DNA from: Candidatus Poribacteria bacterium
GTDB lineage: Bacteria > Poribacteria > WGA-4E > WGA-3G
Reading direction: 5' to 3'
NCBI GenBank assembly: GCA_965214095.1
Contig: OZ243938.1
Coordinates: 5,024,001 to 5,088,000, forward strand
Length of the DNA: 64,000 bases
The notes beneath the pieces are model-generated. The model worked only from the letters and a program-made list of their open reading frames with translations. It was not told the origin of the DNA and did no database searches. How positions within the stretch are numbered: position 1 is the stretch's first letter; each line of letters begins with the position of its first letter. Positions 38,688 through 61,211 of this stretch are shown here, piece after piece. Both the position numbers and the translations under genes were made by a program.

Positions 38688-38925
38688 TTCAGGCACCCAA
38701 GCCTAAAGGCATGGGATTGTGTTAATCTTCTGCCAGGCTTGATGTTCTTCGGTCTTGGCTCGTAACTTTACCTGTATGCCACCGAGGGGTCCCAGCGACC
38801 CACGATACAGAACCTCAGACACTTCCGACTTTGGAAGTTGTTCAAGCGAACTATCGTCTTCGAGTTACTTGGACACGGATATAATCAACGTGCCCCGATA
38901 TGCAAGACACTTCCGACTTGCTTGG
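38688..38925 (-). ncRNA. Putative structured ncRNA transcribed inside element A
   Basis: Downstream of TTGACA-17-TATTAT; helices gcaag/cttgc, gggcacg/cgtgtcc, gtaact/agttac, ctgtat/atacag, gggtc/gaccc. Confidence 0.55.
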
Positions 38926-38929
38926 GCAT

Positions 38930-38958
38930 ATAATAACAGACTTGACGTTTTCTGTCAA
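38930..38958 (-). promoter_or_regulatory. sigma70 promoter inside element A
   Basis: TTGACA-17bp-TATTAT. Confidence 0.75.
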
Positions 38959-39040
38959 GCAAAATATAGGAACAGGCATTCCTCCCACACCTAAAGAAGT
39001 GGGCTTCCTGCCTGAAACGTTGGTGAGTGAGAGATATATT

Positions 39041-55297: not shown

Positions 55298-55957
55298 ATG
55301 AAAAACCTTTTGTTTGATTATCCCAGAAAAGACACTATAATTCAGATAGGTGATAGACAAATCAAACTCACGATTGTTGATGATCCAGATCGATTCTTGG
55401 ATACATTGAGTCGTGAGGATTGTGATGGGAGACTGTATCTACCGTACTGGACATACCTCTGGGAATCTTCTATAGGACTGGCACGTCACGCATCTGAGTT
55501 GGGTAATACAATTGCCGGACAACATATCCTTGAGATCGGTTGTGGTTTTGGACTTGCAGGAATAGTTGCCAGCCAAGTGGGAGCAGAGGTGATTTTTTCA
55601 GATTTTGAATATGATGCTCTTCTATTTGCACAACACAATGCACAGCAAAATGGTATTCGTTCTGTAGATTATGTTCAGGTGGATTGGAATACGCCGTGCT
55701 TTCAATGTCAATTTGATGTCATACTTGCATCTGATGTGATATATGAGGAACAGAATTGGCACCCCATAGTTCAATTACTAAAGAACTATCTAAAACCTGA
55801 TGGCATTGCTATTTTTTCTGAACCGAATCGCAAAAACGCAGGTGGATTTTTCAAAGATATTCGTAAAAACGGATTTACCTTTGAAAAATTCACTTGCTTT
55901 GTCACGTTAGACAATAAGGAAAGACAGGTTAACCTATACACAATTCAAAGGAATTAG
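55298..55957 (+). CDS. Class I SAM methyltransferase (Methyltransf_16/METTL21-like)
   Basis: LPYWTYLWESS, LEIGCGFG, SDFE, DW, ASDVIYE. Confidence 0.85.
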   Translation: MKNLLFDYPRKDTIIQIGDRQIKLTIVDDPDRFLDTLSREDCDGRLYLPYWTYLWESSIGLARHASELGNTIAGQHILEIGCGFGLAGIVASQVGAEVIFSDFEYDALLFAQHNAQQNGIRSVDYVQVDWNTPCFQCQFDVILASDVIYEEQNWHPIVQLLKNYLKPDGIAIFSEPNRKNAGGFFKDIRKNGFTFEKFTCFVTLDNKERQVNLYTIQRN

Positions 55958-58161
55958 TCAGAATTCTCATCCTCAGGTTGTTTTGCTGGATGAATTTCAT
56001 AAGTGGTTCCCTTGTAAGAAACAATCACATGTTTTCCTATTGAAAGATATTGTGAGATATCAGGTTCTTTCTTTAGCAGATCAAAATATGCATCGGTACC
56101 AAATTCAATCTTCTTGGTCTTTGTCTCAGATTTATATGTGGTATCAACCCAAACACCATCTTTAAGATGGAAGGTTTTATTTTTCACCTGCTTAATTGTA
56201 ATTGCCGTTTCTGCTAACTGCTCACCTTTCTGGAGTTTTTGTAACTCTATACTTTCTAGAACCACCATTTCTCTTGCGCTTGGTGCAGTTACAGGTTGTA
56301 CCAAATCAACATTAACTCTCGATTCACTGACCTTTGGAGCATGGGTACTAACAGATCGTGCCATTTTTGCATAAAGATCTGATCTCCCTCTTTGTGAGCG
56401 ACTTAAAACTGGATTCTGTTTCTGTTCTTCTGTTACAAGAAATGACGTGTAAGGCGTCATGATCCCGTACTTTTCGCTGAGTCGCACAATTTCCTCTTCC
56501 AATTCCTTATTTTCTCCGTTTAGCCTAACTTCGTCAACAAGATATGCAACCTTACGTTGTGCCCACAACCTTGGGAGAAATTGGTGATCGGACTCATTCT
56601 TTGGGAACTTTGCATTATTGGAGAATTCCTTTCTTTCTCCGTTGATGTCTCCATGCAAAATCAATTCAGATTTCCCGCTGCCTACATATCTGCCAAGTAC
56701 AGTCAACTGGGAACCGCGAAATAGATGTGGTAACTTCCGCGGATAGAGATTTTTTGTTTTTATGTTCTCTATTTCCAAATCCAAATTGACGAGAATAGGT
56801 TCGCTCACCTTTGTGTAGAAAGATGAAACAACGACCTCTAAATCTTCTTGCGGTTTGACATACTGACGTGTGCCACCGTTTTGTTCAGCCATTTTGTCAA
56901 GTAGATTGACGTTTACATCGTATCCGACACCGAAAACGAATATACGCGATTTATCCCCATTTCTTCCAGAGACATTCTTGAGAATTTGCGTGGCATCTGT
57001 TACACCGACAGTTGCTTCTCCATCAGTGAGAAAGACTACGATGCGCGGTCGTTTTGGGTCTGGTGTGTCGGATATAGCAGCAAGTAGTGCGTCATTGATA
57101 TTTGTGCCGCCAGTCCCTGTAATATCATCAATAAACTCAATTGCATTTTTGCGTTCCTTTTTGACAGAAACTAATTCTTTAGAAAACGGTTCAACATCTG
57201 TATTGAAAAGGATGAGGTTAAATCGGTCTCCATCGTTTAGATTTTCTACACAAAAACGGAGTGCCTTTTTCGCTTGCTCTATTTTAGGTCCTTTCATGCT
57301 TCCAGAACGGTCAAGAATAAAGATAAAGTCTTTTTCAATTATCTTTTTCTTATCAATCTCATATTTTGGAGAGATAAGGAGCATAAAAAAGCCATCTTCA
57401 TCTGGATCATCGCGATGGGTTATTAGGTCAATCCCGAAATCTTTGTCGGATAGGGAATAGTAGCAGGCAAAATCTCGTACAACATTAACATTATTTCCCT
57501 CATAACTGATTGTCGCACGATGATCATCTTTGCGATTAACTGCAACTTCATGTGAGGGGGAATAGATTGTCTTGAGTTCATGCTTGCTCTTTAGGTCAAT
57601 TGAAACGGAGAGACTACCAACAGGAAAATTCGTGAATTTGTCGGTTTTTAGTGGATATGTATATCTTGCTAATGCCGAATCTACACCTATAACCTGAGAG
57701 TATTCCAATTGGATACGTCTTTCTCCGTTTGGAGGAATTGGGAACACTCTTGCCTGAAATGCACGAGTGCCGACATACTCCAACAGTGCGGGGTCTTGCA
57801 TGGAACGGACAATCCCTTCATAGATACTCTTTGCTTTTGCTTTCGCGAGTAGTTCTGCTTTTACAGGTTGTCCATCTATGTATAGCACAAAATTTGAAAT
57901 GGCAACTTCATCTTGTAATGGAAAGAGATATGTGCCTTCAAGTTGCATGTTGTTTGGATTAGCGAATACCTGATCAATTTTCGTTGTTGCGAGCTGGTTG
58001 TCAATAGAAACGTTCACATGGTGTTTTTCAATTCTTAGGTTTTGGATTTGCGGTGCACGTCGTCCAGTCGTCCTGATTATTATGCCTTGTGCCTCAGCAA
58101 ATTGGACTACTCCCGCGAGGAGTAGTATTAATATGGTCGTGAGGAAATTTAATTTTCTCAT
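55954..58161 (-). CDS. Secreted VIT + VWA domain protein (inter-alpha-trypsin inhibitor-like)
   Basis: Signal peptide, VIT (QVFANP..EGTYLFP...DPALLE), MIDAS DRSGS, TNI, LTDG, WAQRKV, TPYTSFL. Confidence 0.92.
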   Translation of the reverse strand: MRKLNFLTTILILLLAGVVQFAEAQGIIIRTTGRRAPQIQNLRIEKHHVNVSIDNQLATTKIDQVFANPNNMQLEGTYLFPLQDEVAISNFVLYIDGQPVKAELLAKAKAKSIYEGIVRSMQDPALLEYVGTRAFQARVFPIPPNGERRIQLEYSQVIGVDSALARYTYPLKTDKFTNFPVGSLSVSIDLKSKHELKTIYSPSHEVAVNRKDDHRATISYEGNNVNVVRDFACYYSLSDKDFGIDLITHRDDPDEDGFFMLLISPKYEIDKKKIIEKDFIFILDRSGSMKGPKIEQAKKALRFCVENLNDGDRFNLILFNTDVEPFSKELVSVKKERKNAIEFIDDITGTGGTNINDALLAAISDTPDPKRPRIVVFLTDGEATVGVTDATQILKNVSGRNGDKSRIFVFGVGYDVNVNLLDKMAEQNGGTRQYVKPQEDLEVVVSSFYTKVSEPILVNLDLEIENIKTKNLYPRKLPHLFRGSQLTVLGRYVGSGKSELILHGDINGERKEFSNNAKFPKNESDHQFLPRLWAQRKVAYLVDEVRLNGENKELEEEIVRLSEKYGIMTPYTSFLVTEEQKQNPVLSRSQRGRSDLYAKMARSVSTHAPKVSESRVNVDLVQPVTAPSAREMVVLESIELQKLQKGEQLAETAITIKQVKNKTFHLKDGVWVDTTYKSETKTKKIEFGTDAYFDLLKKEPDISQYLSIGKHVIVSYKGTTYEIHPAKQPEDENSD

Positions 58162-58566
58162 CTAATCTTCGGGCAGGAGACCCAATCCTTTAGGTTTGGG
58201 AGGAATGCCCGCTCCTATGTTTTTCTTGACAATAAATGTCAAACTTGCTAAAATATATTCGGAAAGTTCAATCACACGTAGTCGTGTGTGAGGTTGTCCG
58301 CAGTCTTTGGTGCTATATGTTGCGGAGCATAAAACTGAAAAACATATACGCTCTCACTACCATAGACACATAACAATTGAGTGGTAGGGACATGGGAGGT
58401 AAAAAACCCAGTCCGAAAACACACTCTCAAATAATAAGTTGCTCTTTTAGAGCAAGTGAGGTTGCTTAGAACCCACTGTGGAGACGAAATAAGACGGATG
58501 ATCCTTTTGGTGAAACGCAACGTCTATGAAGCACAAGTCCAACCCTTTAGGTTTGGGTACTATGAC
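58162..58566 (+). mobile_element. Non-autonomous IS200/IS605-family element B (405 bp, no ORF) with internal promoter and omegaRNA-like cargo
   Basis: Target TCAT, guide GAGA at +16..+19, hairpin CCCAATCCT-TT-AGGTTTGGG; RE guide CAAG, hairpin, end TGAC; empty site rebuilds GGAGG-6nt-ATG. Confidence 0.88.
58226..58254 (+). promoter_or_regulatory. sigma70 promoter inside element B
   Basis: TTGACA-17bp-TAAAAT. Confidence 0.75.
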
Positions 58567-58582
58567 TGGAGACCTCCATCGT
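58260..58582 (+). ncRNA. Putative standalone TnpB-type omegaRNA/reRNA with long structured 5' part; 3' guide from flanking DNA
   Basis: 3' module ctgtggagacg...cgtctatgaagcacaag plus RE hairpin resembles tnpB 3' ends; hairpins cacacg/cgtgtg, ccgcag/ttgcgg, ttgctc/gagcaa. Confidence 0.6.
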
Positions 58583-58627
58583 AATGTAAGGTTTGTCAGA
58601 AAGACTTTGTCAATTTTAAGAACAGAA

Positions 58628-60955
58628 TTAACTTGTCTGCATCGCTTCTAAATCCATCAAACGACGTGCCTTCCGTACAAGCTTGAACAATTCTTTTTCC
58701 TGCTCTTCACTTTCGGAATTCTTAGACTGTAGTTGAGGTAGAATGCCTTTGAGAATTCGCTGCACTGCACCTAAACTACCATCCTTTGCCCAATAACTTT
58801 CGCGTAGGATTTCAGCGAATTGTGCGACTGAGGCAGCAACCTGAAAATCCGGTGTAGTATCTTCAAATGAATCTTTCAGGTCTTCAACGCTGATTTTTTC
58901 ATTGACTTCCGTCACCTCTGCTGTGTCAGGATCTTCATGCCGAATAAAGACAGTGGCAAGTTTCTCTTTATCCACATTCTTGCAGAGTTTGACTTCATAG
59001 AGTGCGGTAACACTGTGTCCCGAACCGATTTCACCCGCATCTGCTTCATCGTTACGGAAATCTTCGTGTTCCATCTGACGGTTCTCGTACCCTAACAATC
59101 GGAACCGACTGACTGTATCCTCGTTGAATTCCACCTGAATTTTCGCATCCTTTGCAATAACCTGAAGCGTGCCTGTCAGATTTTGCACAAAGATTCGTTT
59201 CGCTTCTCTGAGGCTGTCAACGTAGGCATAATTTCCGTTGCCTTTCTTGGCAAGTTCTTCCATTAGGACATCGTTGAAATTGCCCATGCCGAACCCGACT
59301 GTAGTGAGGTAAATATCATCTTGATCCACATAATCACGGATTTCTTTGAGTAGCATAGCGGGATCTGTTACCCCTTGGTTTGCCACGCCATCTGAGCATA
59401 AGATAACACGATTGATACAACCTTTTTCCGCATTCTTACTGGCAAGTTCATATCCTTTGTGTATCCCGTCTTCAACATTGGTTACACCTTCAGGACATAG
59501 AGCATCAATTGCATTCAAAATATGTTTTCGGTTCACTGCACTTGTATGTGGCAGAACAACCCGTGCATCTGTGCCGTAGACAACAATGCCGATCTTATCA
59601 TTCGGACCAAGTTGCTCTACTAAGAGACGTAACGCTTTCTTCACAAGACCTAATCGATTTTCCATACCCATTGAACCGGATACATCTATGACAAATGTTA
59701 GATTTGCATCCTTTCGGTCAGTATCTTCTATGATTTTTCCTTGAATACCGATACGGACTAATTGGAGTCTTTTACCGTTTCCAAATTTTGAGGGTGCCCC
59801 TTCAATGTGAACGGCAAATGCATCTTCTGTTGGCGGTGTGTAGTTGTAATCAAACGCATTGATAAATTCCTCAACTCTGACAGACTCTGGTTGTGGGAGA
59901 TTGCCATCGTGGAGAAAACGACGCATGACTGCGTAAGATGCAGAATCTGTGTCCATAGCAAAGGTAGAAAACTTGTCATCTTCTGTGTCAATGAAAGGAT
60001 TGGTGCCATGTCCTTTGAAGAATACATCGTGATATGCAGTTCCGTTTGGTGGGGTTAATCCCAATCTTGACACGGACTGTCTGCGTAACACAGATTGCTC
60101 CATGAGCCTTTCAGTACCTCTCACATTCAGAGGTATAGACCTTGATAGTCGCTGTTCCATTAGCTCTGGAGAAGAATTCGCCTTAACGAGAGAATCCATT
60201 GCAACACCAACACGTCCGCTGCGGAATTCTAGTTCAGATACTTCTGACAATCCAAAATCTTCTTCAAATGAGAGGAGTTCTGCAGCTGTACGTGGACGTT
60301 CAACCAAGGAATATGAACATACAAAGTTTTTGTCTAACTGGACATCGTTGCTTTGGTAGGTCAGTTTCGCAAGCCCTTCAGATTCTTGGTCAATCTTGAC
60401 AGCGTGTGAAGGGGAATTGACAGTTTTTATCCCAATTCCATTATCTATAACTATGGACATCTCAAAATTACCAACAGATTGGTTGCTTTTTAATGGATGC
60501 GTGTAGGTGATATTTTCATCAGTAAAATTTAGACGTTCATCATACCTTATCTGAACACTACACGCGCCTCTAGCAGGAATCTTTAACACCTTCGTCTGTA
60601 AGTGTGAAGATGTAATCGACTCTAAAATGTCAGCATCTGAAGTCTGGAAGGCATCCCCATATATCTCTTTTAATTTTTTCTTATTTGCCAGTTTAATAGG
60701 AATTACCTTTTTATCAATACGGACTTCATATCCCTTGTTTCTTTCCTGTTTAGGTTGTGGAATAATGAACACACCCTCAACTGGCGAATTATTTGGATTT
60801 CTGAAAACGACTTCAACATCCGTCTGAGTAATTGCGTTTTGAATTCGGACATTCAAAAGGTAGTGTTCAATAAGCAGCTTTTCAAACTTGCGGGTTTCAT
60901 CTGGACGTTGAAGAAATAAAGTTTGTGCTAATGCACGAAGTTCTGATTTTTTCAT
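58628..60955 (-). CDS. VIT-like + YfbK-type VWA (DUF3520) protein
   Basis: FSTFAMDTDSASY, VRVEEFINAFDY, MIDAS DVSGS, SDGVAN, IAKDAKIQVEFN, RLLGYENR. Confidence 0.9.
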   Translation of the reverse strand: MKKSELRALAQTLFLQRPDETRKFEKLLIEHYLLNVRIQNAITQTDVEVVFRNPNNSPVEGVFIIPQPKQERNKGYEVRIDKKVIPIKLANKKKLKEIYGDAFQTSDADILESITSSHLQTKVLKIPARGACSVQIRYDERLNFTDENITYTHPLKSNQSVGNFEMSIVIDNGIGIKTVNSPSHAVKIDQESEGLAKLTYQSNDVQLDKNFVCSYSLVERPRTAAELLSFEEDFGLSEVSELEFRSGRVGVAMDSLVKANSSPELMEQRLSRSIPLNVRGTERLMEQSVLRRQSVSRLGLTPPNGTAYHDVFFKGHGTNPFIDTEDDKFSTFAMDTDSASYAVMRRFLHDGNLPQPESVRVEEFINAFDYNYTPPTEDAFAVHIEGAPSKFGNGKRLQLVRIGIQGKIIEDTDRKDANLTFVIDVSGSMGMENRLGLVKKALRLLVEQLGPNDKIGIVVYGTDARVVLPHTSAVNRKHILNAIDALCPEGVTNVEDGIHKGYELASKNAEKGCINRVILCSDGVANQGVTDPAMLLKEIRDYVDQDDIYLTTVGFGMGNFNDVLMEELAKKGNGNYAYVDSLREAKRIFVQNLTGTLQVIAKDAKIQVEFNEDTVSRFRLLGYENRQMEHEDFRNDEADAGEIGSGHSVTALYEVKLCKNVDKEKLATVFIRHEDPDTAEVTEVNEKISVEDLKDSFEDTTPDFQVAASVAQFAEILRESYWAKDGSLGAVQRILKGILPQLQSKNSESEEQEKELFKLVRKARRLMDLEAMQTS

Positions 60956-61211
60956 CGTGATCTCCTTTATTGTATTTTTGGGTTTGTGATTTGTGTGACT
61001 TAGTTGTAAATGGAAGAGTTGTTTTGCATTTAGTTGGAATATATCTTAAACGCAATATGGGAAGAGAAAAGGTATCTCAACTCTACAATTACGCTAAGAC
61101 GTTTTAGTGGCAAAAAGGTTTAATATATTTGGAAGTAAATCATGGTATCAGACAGAACATAGGGCGGGCACAAGGTCCGCCCTATAATCTACAAGGAACT
61201 AAGCAGAAAGA

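Follow-up and report, generated by a model that had tools for sequence, protein, structure and literature searches.

A protein-free IS200/IS605 derivative with an omegaRNA-like right end and a putative RNA leader in Candidatus Poribacteria

What can a transposable element do that has the two ends of an IS200/IS605 transposon, a promoter of its own, and no protein gene in between? The question is raised by a 405-bp element in a 64,000-nt stretch of a Candidatus Poribacteria genome (contig OZ243938.1; this whole stretch is called the window below), where it is inserted at the 5' end of a gene for a VIT-VWA protein. We consider it likely that this is a mobile palindrome-associated transposable element (PATE) with its own promoter and a structured RNA of approximately 300 nt, the omegaRNA core of which is served in trans by TnpB. 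The term PATE reportedly goes back to Dyall-Smith et al. in 2011.

The element and its copies

The element and its immediate surroundings comprise the following features.

58157..58161, plus strand: target or transposon-adjacent motif (TAM) CTCAT, replaced by TTCAT in the three further copies; the ATG of the VIT-VWA gene lies in the complement of the motif
58162..58566, plus strand: the whole protein-free IS200/IS605 derivative (PATE, family A), 405 bp, with four copies and an empty site in genome G051
58170..58211, plus strand: extended palindrome of the left end (LE), with a core imperfect hairpin at 58181-58200, 19 nt from the cut site
58567..58582, plus strand: flank, putative guide, antisense to the 5' untranslated region (UTR) of the VIT-VWA gene and including the complement of GGAGG at 58573-58577

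The element follows directly on ...TTTTCTCAT and ends in ...GGGTACTATGAC, and the 16-nt flank up to 58582, which would serve as the guide, lies outside it. The LE hairpin, CCCAATCC-TTTA-GGTTTGGG at 58181-58200, sits inside the longer palindrome (58170-58211), and a tail of 9 nt separates the near-identical right-end (RE) hairpin (58538-58557) from the end of the element. Both hairpins lie on the same strand and stay paired through double changes in homologues from two other genomes, G006 and G022. The seven open reading frames (ORFs) overlapping the element are 30-82 aa long; the two longest, of 82 aa (minus strand) and 45 aa (plus strand), were searched against Pfam and gave no match at E ≤ 0.01, and in homologues from two other genomes insertions and deletions that are not multiples of three break the frames. 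A decayed tnpB interior was considered and rejected: blastx and sensitive blastn against the TnpB ORFs of the genome and against the TnpB element T1 (described below) returned nothing at element positions 96-298.

The genome to which the window belongs (G000; 5.25 Mb, 41% G+C) holds four full copies at 98-100% identity, each preceded by TTCAT or CTCAT and each terminating in ...TACTATGAC, together with an LE-only fragment and an LE/RE fusion of approximately 50 nt. The empty site is found in G051 (locus L069, flank 98% identical), where ...TTTTCTCAT directly abuts TGGAGACCTCC... with no duplication. Seamless insertion adjacent to a motif is a hallmark of the IS200/IS605 family, and the element is therefore assigned as a mobile member of it. 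Window 58162-58566 is thus a protein-free, non-autonomous IS200/IS605 derivative of a TTCAT-targeting lineage, and, with four near-identical copies and presence or absence between sister genomes, it is recently mobile.

Further observations concern these loci and their relatives. To the right of the insertion (58588 onward) the window and L069 are identical for 21 nt and then unrelated, so the region upstream of the VIT-VWA gene has been rearranged in one of the two genomes. Beside the LE hairpin, a 6-nt mismatched internal loop (AGGAGA opposite AGGAAT) has in some copies been made a perfect complement, with the altered side differing between copies; this is seen in two element copies (G000:C1:959174-959579 and 3279134-3279539), in the G051 copy L063 and in the T1-type loci L104 and L117, and looks like intra-hairpin template switching or mismatch correction. 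A hairpin scan of G000 gave 33 sites from several protein-free families. The window also contains family B, a second protein-free IS200/IS605 derivative of 335 bp (38688-39022, minus strand, 3' of CTCAC) with its own TTGACA-17-TATTAT promoter, about four full copies in the genome, and an RE resembling that of the IS605 copies bearing tnpA and tnpB.

A preliminary description had called the locus a protein-free IS200/IS605 element with LE and RE hairpins, which the ORF and Pfam tests, the copies and the G051 empty site bear out, and had placed it at 58162..58582; the start stands, while the end moves to 58566, the last 16 nt being flank. Its prediction that the empty site would be TCAT plus flank at the ribosome-binding site and start codon of the VIT-VWA gene is what is seen in G051.

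The right end and its closest TnpB relative

The closest protein-coding relative of the element is T1 (G000:C1:325905-327290), which encodes a 373-aa TnpB, also lies 3' of TTCAT, and is 4.7 Mb away. The T1 LE with its promoter is 84% identical to element positions 7-95, and the last 111 nt of T1 are 77% identical to positions 299-405. The T1 protein gives Pfam matches to the OrfB_IS605 and TNB domains and matches ISDra2 TnpB chains (E 3.7e-38); in the one alignment viewed, with the related chain 9yyg, the motifs GIDFG, AAETLN and HDRDINAA are in register. As judged from this alignment T1 TnpB retains the RuvC D/E/D motifs and is a candidate intact nuclease, the motif check covering T1 as one of the 22 TnpB TNB-domain matches in G000. 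Among the matches listed, T1-like TnpBs of at least 70% identity come from many members of the genus; these include G051, G022, G042, G015 and G047, all five of which carry family-A-type PATEs.

Comparison of the PATE with T1 and with two further TnpB elements, T2 (370 aa, three copies) and T3, shows a common stretch running from ...GCTTAG... through the end. It includes the last ~11 codons of tnpB, which are decayed in the PATE, with TAG where T1 has TAT; 5' of GCTTAG, where the TnpB elements carry coding sequence, the PATE has no similarity to them. The homology begins at stem 1, which corresponds to the 5' limit of the functional ISDra2 scaffold. As set out in the accessible part of the report on the ISDra2 cryo-EM structure (PMC10097598), that omegaRNA scaffold comprises 116 nt and stems 1-4, the loop of stem 1 forming a pseudoknot with the nucleotides immediately 5' of the guide; stem 3b and the 5' region are dispensable, and positions −20 to −17 are a UUUA loop. 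The corresponding features predicted in the element are:

58458..58566, plus strand: omegaRNA-like scaffold, identified by homology to TnpB right ends, pair counts and the architecture of PMC10097598
58458-63/58470-74, plus strand: scaffold stem 1
58467-69 with 58560-62, plus strand: scaffold pseudoknot, loop UAG with CUA
58477-80 with 58532-35, plus strand: scaffold stem 2, UGUG with CACA (−35 to −32)
58482-86/58521-25, plus strand: scaffold stem 3a, enclosing a variable stem 3b (58487-58520)
58538-57, plus strand: scaffold stem 4, which is the RE hairpin, with a UUUA loop at −21 to −18

Across 29 distinct right ends of PATEs and TnpB elements, this ISDra2-like structure is paired in 95.4% of cells and 9 of 25 pairs are changed on both sides, compared with 28-43% pairing in controls with slid partners. 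The pseudoknot between the stem 1 loop and the 3' tail covaries (n = 30), occurring as UAG:CUA in 16 sequences, UGG:CCU in 10, CGG:CCG in three and UGG:UCU in one. The likeness to the ISDra2 omegaRNA, which is drawn from the published description cited above and not from a sequence alignment, thus extends to a scaffold of ~110-116 nt that terminates at the RE with the flank as guide, to the pseudoknot, to stem 2 at −35 to −32, to a variable stem 3b, and to a UUUA loop 18-21 nt from the end. In contrast to ISDra2, the TAM is TTCAT rather than TTGAT, and the RNA would come from a protein-free element rather than from a tnpB mRNA. On this comparative evidence the last ~110 nt of the element fit an ISDra2-type omegaRNA architecture with compensatory changes.

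The 5' leader

In place of tnpB, the predicted RNA has a 5' part of ~190 nt, which we divide as follows.

58261..58375, plus strand: leader domain I, family-A version, common only to G006 and without covariation support
58379..58428, plus strand: leader domain II, a three-tier stem (outer 58379-84/58423-28, middle 58388-91/58411-14, inner 58393-98/58406-10)
58442..58455, plus strand: hairpin H, adjoining the omegaRNA core on its 5' side; it is the weakest of the helices, with pairing in 78-85% of cells

For the whole RNA, 30 sequences from two genera (window included) yield 69 pairs in 15 helices with 94.3% of cells paired and 38 of the 69 pairs changed on both sides, values that none of 500 shuffles reached; slid controls are 28-46% paired, a contrast that is inflated, the structure having been drawn from the same sequences. 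Within the leader, the domain I common to most relatives (21 sequences) is pseudoknotted, with 98.6% of cells paired and 12 of 24 pairs changed on both sides, the pseudoknot helix itself giving 98.4% and four of six. An alternative closing helix for domain I, between the 5' end and the downstream arm, was rejected at 84% paired and none of six pairs changed on both sides. For domain II and hairpin H together (17 sequences including the window copy), 12 of the 16 predicted pairs have compensatory changes. G-U pairs are frequent (columns 38/83, for example, have one in 28 of 30 sequences, and columns 139/196 in 27 of 30), which fits the plus strand.

These helices also bear on the idea that the conserved folds work in single-stranded DNA, during TnpA transposition, and not in RNA. 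Transposition of IS200/IS605 elements proceeds through the top strand in single-stranded form, and the end hairpins are recognised by TnpA as DNA, in line with the Figure 2 legend of the Meers et al. preprint (10.1101/2023.03.14.532601). Such a role for the folds would be consistent with the location of the covarying helices on the top strand and with the identity of stem 4 and the RE hairpin. However, the internal helices match a solved RNA architecture, as far as it is described in the accessible part of PMC10097598, many of the pairs are G-U, a conserved promoter faces the helices within the genus, and TnpB elements with a 1.1-kb gene instead of the leader also transpose. We regard a purely DNA-level function as very unlikely indeed.

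The interior of the window's element (58250-58470) recurs in 4 of 40 genomes of the genus, and its profile reaches further PATE families; the leader common to most relatives is found in 18 of the 40, with up to 16 matches per genome. When the whole RNA served as query at phylum level, 93 of 176 genomes gave matches; 5 of 31 genera were represented, and within the same family the figure was 90 of 111 genomes. Some matches are to the scaffold only. The leader is joined to a T1-type scaffold in family A (TTCAT), to a T2-type scaffold in family F (TTAAC) and to a T4-type scaffold (391-aa TnpB) in family E, a 439-bp element whose last ~115 nt align to the T4 RE. One family-E copy (G000:C1:4996832-4998273) is interrupted by an insertion of ~1 kb with DDE-transposase-like ORFs.

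In none of 30 loci does the leader lie inside a TnpB element, and one locus, L089 in G017, merely has a TnpB element nearby. L089 had been taken as a possible case of a leader within a TnpB element and was rejected as such: the locus packs three distinct features into 700 bp, namely a short variant of a PATE, a tRNA gene and a T2-type TnpB element, lying next to one another. Searches of the genome with nhmmer leader profiles matched only other PATE copies, and no TnpB genes or their 5' UTRs; by eye, the first ~25 nt of domain I resemble the tnpB 5' UTRs of T1 and T4. As read from these alignments, the 5' ~190 nt are a conserved, covarying, multi-helix RNA leader specific to such PATEs across two genera. 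Candidate roles are stabilising the trans-acting guide, maturing it, or competing for its loading.

Could the leader instead be the real payload? The RNA would then work largely independently of TnpB, for instance in a regulatory or protective role, or as a decoy that titrates TnpB, and the core would only retain the element or do nothing. Domains I and II and hairpin H are kept with covariation across two genera and occur on the scaffolds of three TnpB lineages (T1, T2 and T4); the leader is inside a TnpB element in none of the loci and adjacent to one in a single case; and, according to the accessible part of PMC10097598, ISDra2 TnpB needs no RNA 5' of its 116-nt scaffold. Against this, the scaffold is conserved as well as the leader is and its guide-proximal pseudoknot covaries, which argues that the core is in use. 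Rfam gave no match for the leader, and no target or partner for it was found. The domain I of the window could not be aligned with the widespread domain I, and such dissimilarity would be odd in a payload. We therefore consider the payload explanation unlikely.

Transcription, use in trans and insertion at start codons

Transcription of the element would start from a promoter just inside the LE.

58226..58254, plus strand: sigma-70-type promoter TTGACA-17-TAAAAT with a TG extension, 11 of 12 matches, predicted start near 58261

The number of promoter-like sites in 57900-58900 is ordinary (three, compared with 2.1 ± 1.2 in shuffles), and only the quality of this site is notable. T1 has the same promoter, where it serves tnpB; by this comparison the promoter of the element is inherited from the LE of a TnpB-bearing relative. 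By eye, equivalent hexamers are present in relatives of the genus, the form in the first genus being TTGACA-17-TATAMT. The promoter scan showed no outward promoter from the element.

Part of this region is present in sequencing runs recorded as RNA. Three RNA libraries have a contig depth of 9-28 over the element and 0 on both flanks, as read from assembled contigs, which give neither strand nor true ends; a lack of contigs over a stretch does not indicate that it is silent. A DNA-type run, by comparison, has a depth of 96-117 on the flanks and 470 inside the element. The RNA contigs span 58206-58567 (X1), 58214-58500 (X3) and 58261-58557 (X6), the start of X6 lying 7 nt after the −10 hexamer, and one RNA-library contig extends ~25 nt beyond the RE into the flank of the copy c959. 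Transcription of the element is supported at the level of these strandless contigs only.

The same contigs enter into whether the element might be an inert deletion remnant of a TnpB element, with promoter and folds left over and no longer functional. Its ends and promoter are those of T1, its scaffold still holds the decayed last codons of tnpB (TAG where T1 has TAT), and degenerate relatives do occur, as the LE-only fragment, the ~50-nt LE/RE fusion and the IS-split copy show. Yet the interior is not similar to tnpB, so that no simple deletion would produce it; the element is mobile and multi-copy; more than half of its helix pairs (38 of 69) still pair via double changes across genera; and RNA-library contigs fall on it and none on its flanks. 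An inert remnant is accordingly quite improbable in our estimation.

As we picture a guide RNA used in trans, the promoter would drive an RNA from ~58261 through the RE into the flank, and T1 TnpB (373 aa) would load this RNA. A Y1 TnpA from one of the four IS605 copies of the genome would excise the element, after which the TnpB-RNA complex would recognise TCAT plus flank at the emptied site and cut there, and recombination with a sister copy would put the element back. In this way the element would be a parasite of other elements in two respects, using their transposase as well as their nuclease. Y1 tnpA has five matches in G000, four of them full length and located in ~1.8-kb IS605 copies that also encode a 421-aa TnpB; the hairpins of these copies have the same CCCAA..TTTAG..TTGGG form as those of the element.

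Several observations weigh against this proposal, together with the inflated pairing contrast and the strandless contigs described above. The TnpA-bearing IS605 copies of G000 are flanked by TTCAC and not by TTCAT, so that TnpA is only a candidate for mobilising the element. G006 has a family-A PATE, and its best T1-like TnpB, among the matches listed, is only 57% identical. Of the three RNA contigs, two begin upstream of the predicted start, with first positions (58206 and 58214) that lie within the promoter or ahead of it; an extra A at 58415 is common to all three, so they stem from other copies or strains; and the two RNA studies may be one data set filed twice. Among 15 copies retrieved from the second genus (L128-L142), most of which lack an obvious −35/−10 pair there, a clear TTGACA/TATAAT pair at the equivalent place was found by eye in one (L134). 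Rfam 15 gave no match at E ≤ 1 in window 56000-61000, and the sole match in six related loci was to a tRNA. Domain I as it occurs in the window has one diverged relative, in G006, and lacks covariation support. Single-sequence folding is uninformative: the plus-strand fold has only a modest edge over shuffles (z = −1.74, with 3 of 100 shuffles as good), and the minus strand scores better (z = −3.2), mostly via the LE palindrome. Finally, TnpB loading, cleavage and the role of the leader are all inferred.

The preliminary description had also proposed the TTGACA-17-TAAAAT promoter inside the LE, confirmed here with 11 of 12 matches and its presence in T1, and an omegaRNA-like 3' module, which agrees with the T1 RE homology (77%), the ISDra2-type architecture and the covariation. 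Its suggestion of a TnpB or TldR-like partner holds in part: an intact T1 TnpB with matching ends is present, and a TldR is not needed, the RuvC motifs being kept. The ~190-nt 5' part, which it had left unexplained, does not align to tnpB and is now seen as a conserved, covarying leader with candidate roles. The copy count and the search for tnpA and tnpB loci with the same ends, which it had recommended, returned four copies, T1 and, with similar hairpins, the TTCAC-flanked Y1 tnpA IS605 copies, and the recommended comparison with Rfam covariance models drew a blank at E ≤ 1. With a matching-end TnpB in the genome, an interior that is not tnpB, and covariation present, its reading of the element is supported overall.

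Where the element lands is itself of interest, beginning with the gene it interrupts.

55954..58161, minus strand: VIT-VWA gene, 735 aa, which the insertion separates from its ribosome-binding site

The window copy is inserted exactly between the Shine-Dalgarno sequence GGAGG and the ATG of this gene. The gene is parted from its Shine-Dalgarno sequence and the scan gave no outward promoter, so that the insertion probably silences it. The next gene upstream (58628-60955, minus strand) encodes a second VIT/VWA protein of 775 aa with a YfbK C-terminal domain, and the insertion therefore lies between two paralogous-looking genes on the same strand.

In G000 each of the four full copies separates the Shine-Dalgarno motif of an opposite-strand ORF from its ATG (ORFs of 735, 253, 704 and 996 codons), TTCAT being the complement of ATGAA. 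For other elements with the same LE type, an ORF of 150 codons or more begins at 12 of 18 evaluable sites; for T1-type TnpB elements one does so at 7 of 14 evaluable sites, a count that leaves out two loci with short flanks and four loci where no LE was found. For the TTCAT lineage overall, 19 of 32 evaluable sites place the element precisely between Shine-Dalgarno sequence and ATG of an opposite-strand gene, compared with a background of 12% (12.2% of the ATGAA occurrences in the genome start an ORF of at least 150 codons). The binomial tail, computed for 19 of 31 before the miss at L113 was added, is 1.4e-10 at p = 0.122 and 3e-4 at p = 0.30. The TTCAC-flanked family has no start-codon pattern. 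The TTCAT-targeting family is thus at start codons far oftener than chance predicts. Several of the genes at TTCAT-lineage sites begin with signal-peptide-like MKK or MKR sequences.

How does the element compare with systems already described? In the accessible part of Meers et al. (2023; 10.1101/2023.03.14.532601), PATEs are described for the ISGst families of Geobacillus stearothermophilus, such elements often encode omegaRNAs that need TnpB in trans, and the homing logic is that the emptied site is cut and repaired from a sister copy. PATEs with trans-used omegaRNAs are stated there, and the kind is already known. Like the ISGst PATEs, the element has the ends and hairpins of a TnpB/TnpA element, no protein gene and multiple copies, and is presumably mobilised in trans. 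Unlike them, as they are described in that part of the preprint, it has an RNA of ~300 nt, a conserved ~190-nt leader and an identifiable promoter of its own, and its leader recurs on PATEs of three TnpB lineages.

IStrons, which are IS605 or IS607 elements with a group I intron (10.1101/2023.11.20.567912, accessible part), likewise combine a structured RNA at the left with an omegaRNA at the RE, and protein-free PATE versions of them exist. In contrast, neither a group I intron nor any other Rfam family was matched in the element (E ≤ 1), and the element is antisense to the interrupted gene, so that splicing could not rescue the VIT-VWA gene. TldRs, described in the available text of PMC10705468 as nuclease-dead, TnpB-derived, RNA-guided repressors, are similar in that a TnpB-type guide RNA is encoded apart from the protein; here, however, the candidate partner T1 keeps its RuvC motifs, and the insertion site dictates the guide, whose only match is the emptied site. 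What appears to be new is the start-codon bias and the conserved leader together with its reuse by PATEs of different TnpB lineages: no description of these features was found in the literature searched, figures and supplements lying outside its scope. The same search found no paper pairing Poribacteria with TnpB and, on stand-alone or trans guides, nothing beyond the works cited here, bioRxiv supplements again being outside its scope.

A broader interpretation of these features is possible, although we advance it only tentatively and consider it doubtful as a whole. The leader would be an accessory RNA module, recombinable onto the scaffolds of different TnpB lineages, that turns a bare TnpB scaffold into an autonomous, promoter-driven trans guide. 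With seamless excision and a landing place between the Shine-Dalgarno sequence and the ATG of ATGAA genes, many of them for secreted proteins, PATEs would then be hyperparasites of TnpA as well as TnpB, and could be reversible, RNA-guarded off-switches of genes.

TnpB guide RNAs are normally studied as by-products of tnpB mRNA. The element described here is, as we read it, a natural case of the guide alone, with its own promoter and a conserved, structured leader in front. If TnpB does load this RNA in trans, the element and its partner would be a natural two-part RNA-guided system, and the element a parasite of a parasite. The leader could reveal what a stand-alone omegaRNA needs in terms of stability, maturation and competition for protein, and this would matter in practice for compact genome editors based on TnpB. 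The start-codon bias, in turn, raises the question of how recognition of about five bases leads to ribosome-binding sites, and with what effect on the host genes.

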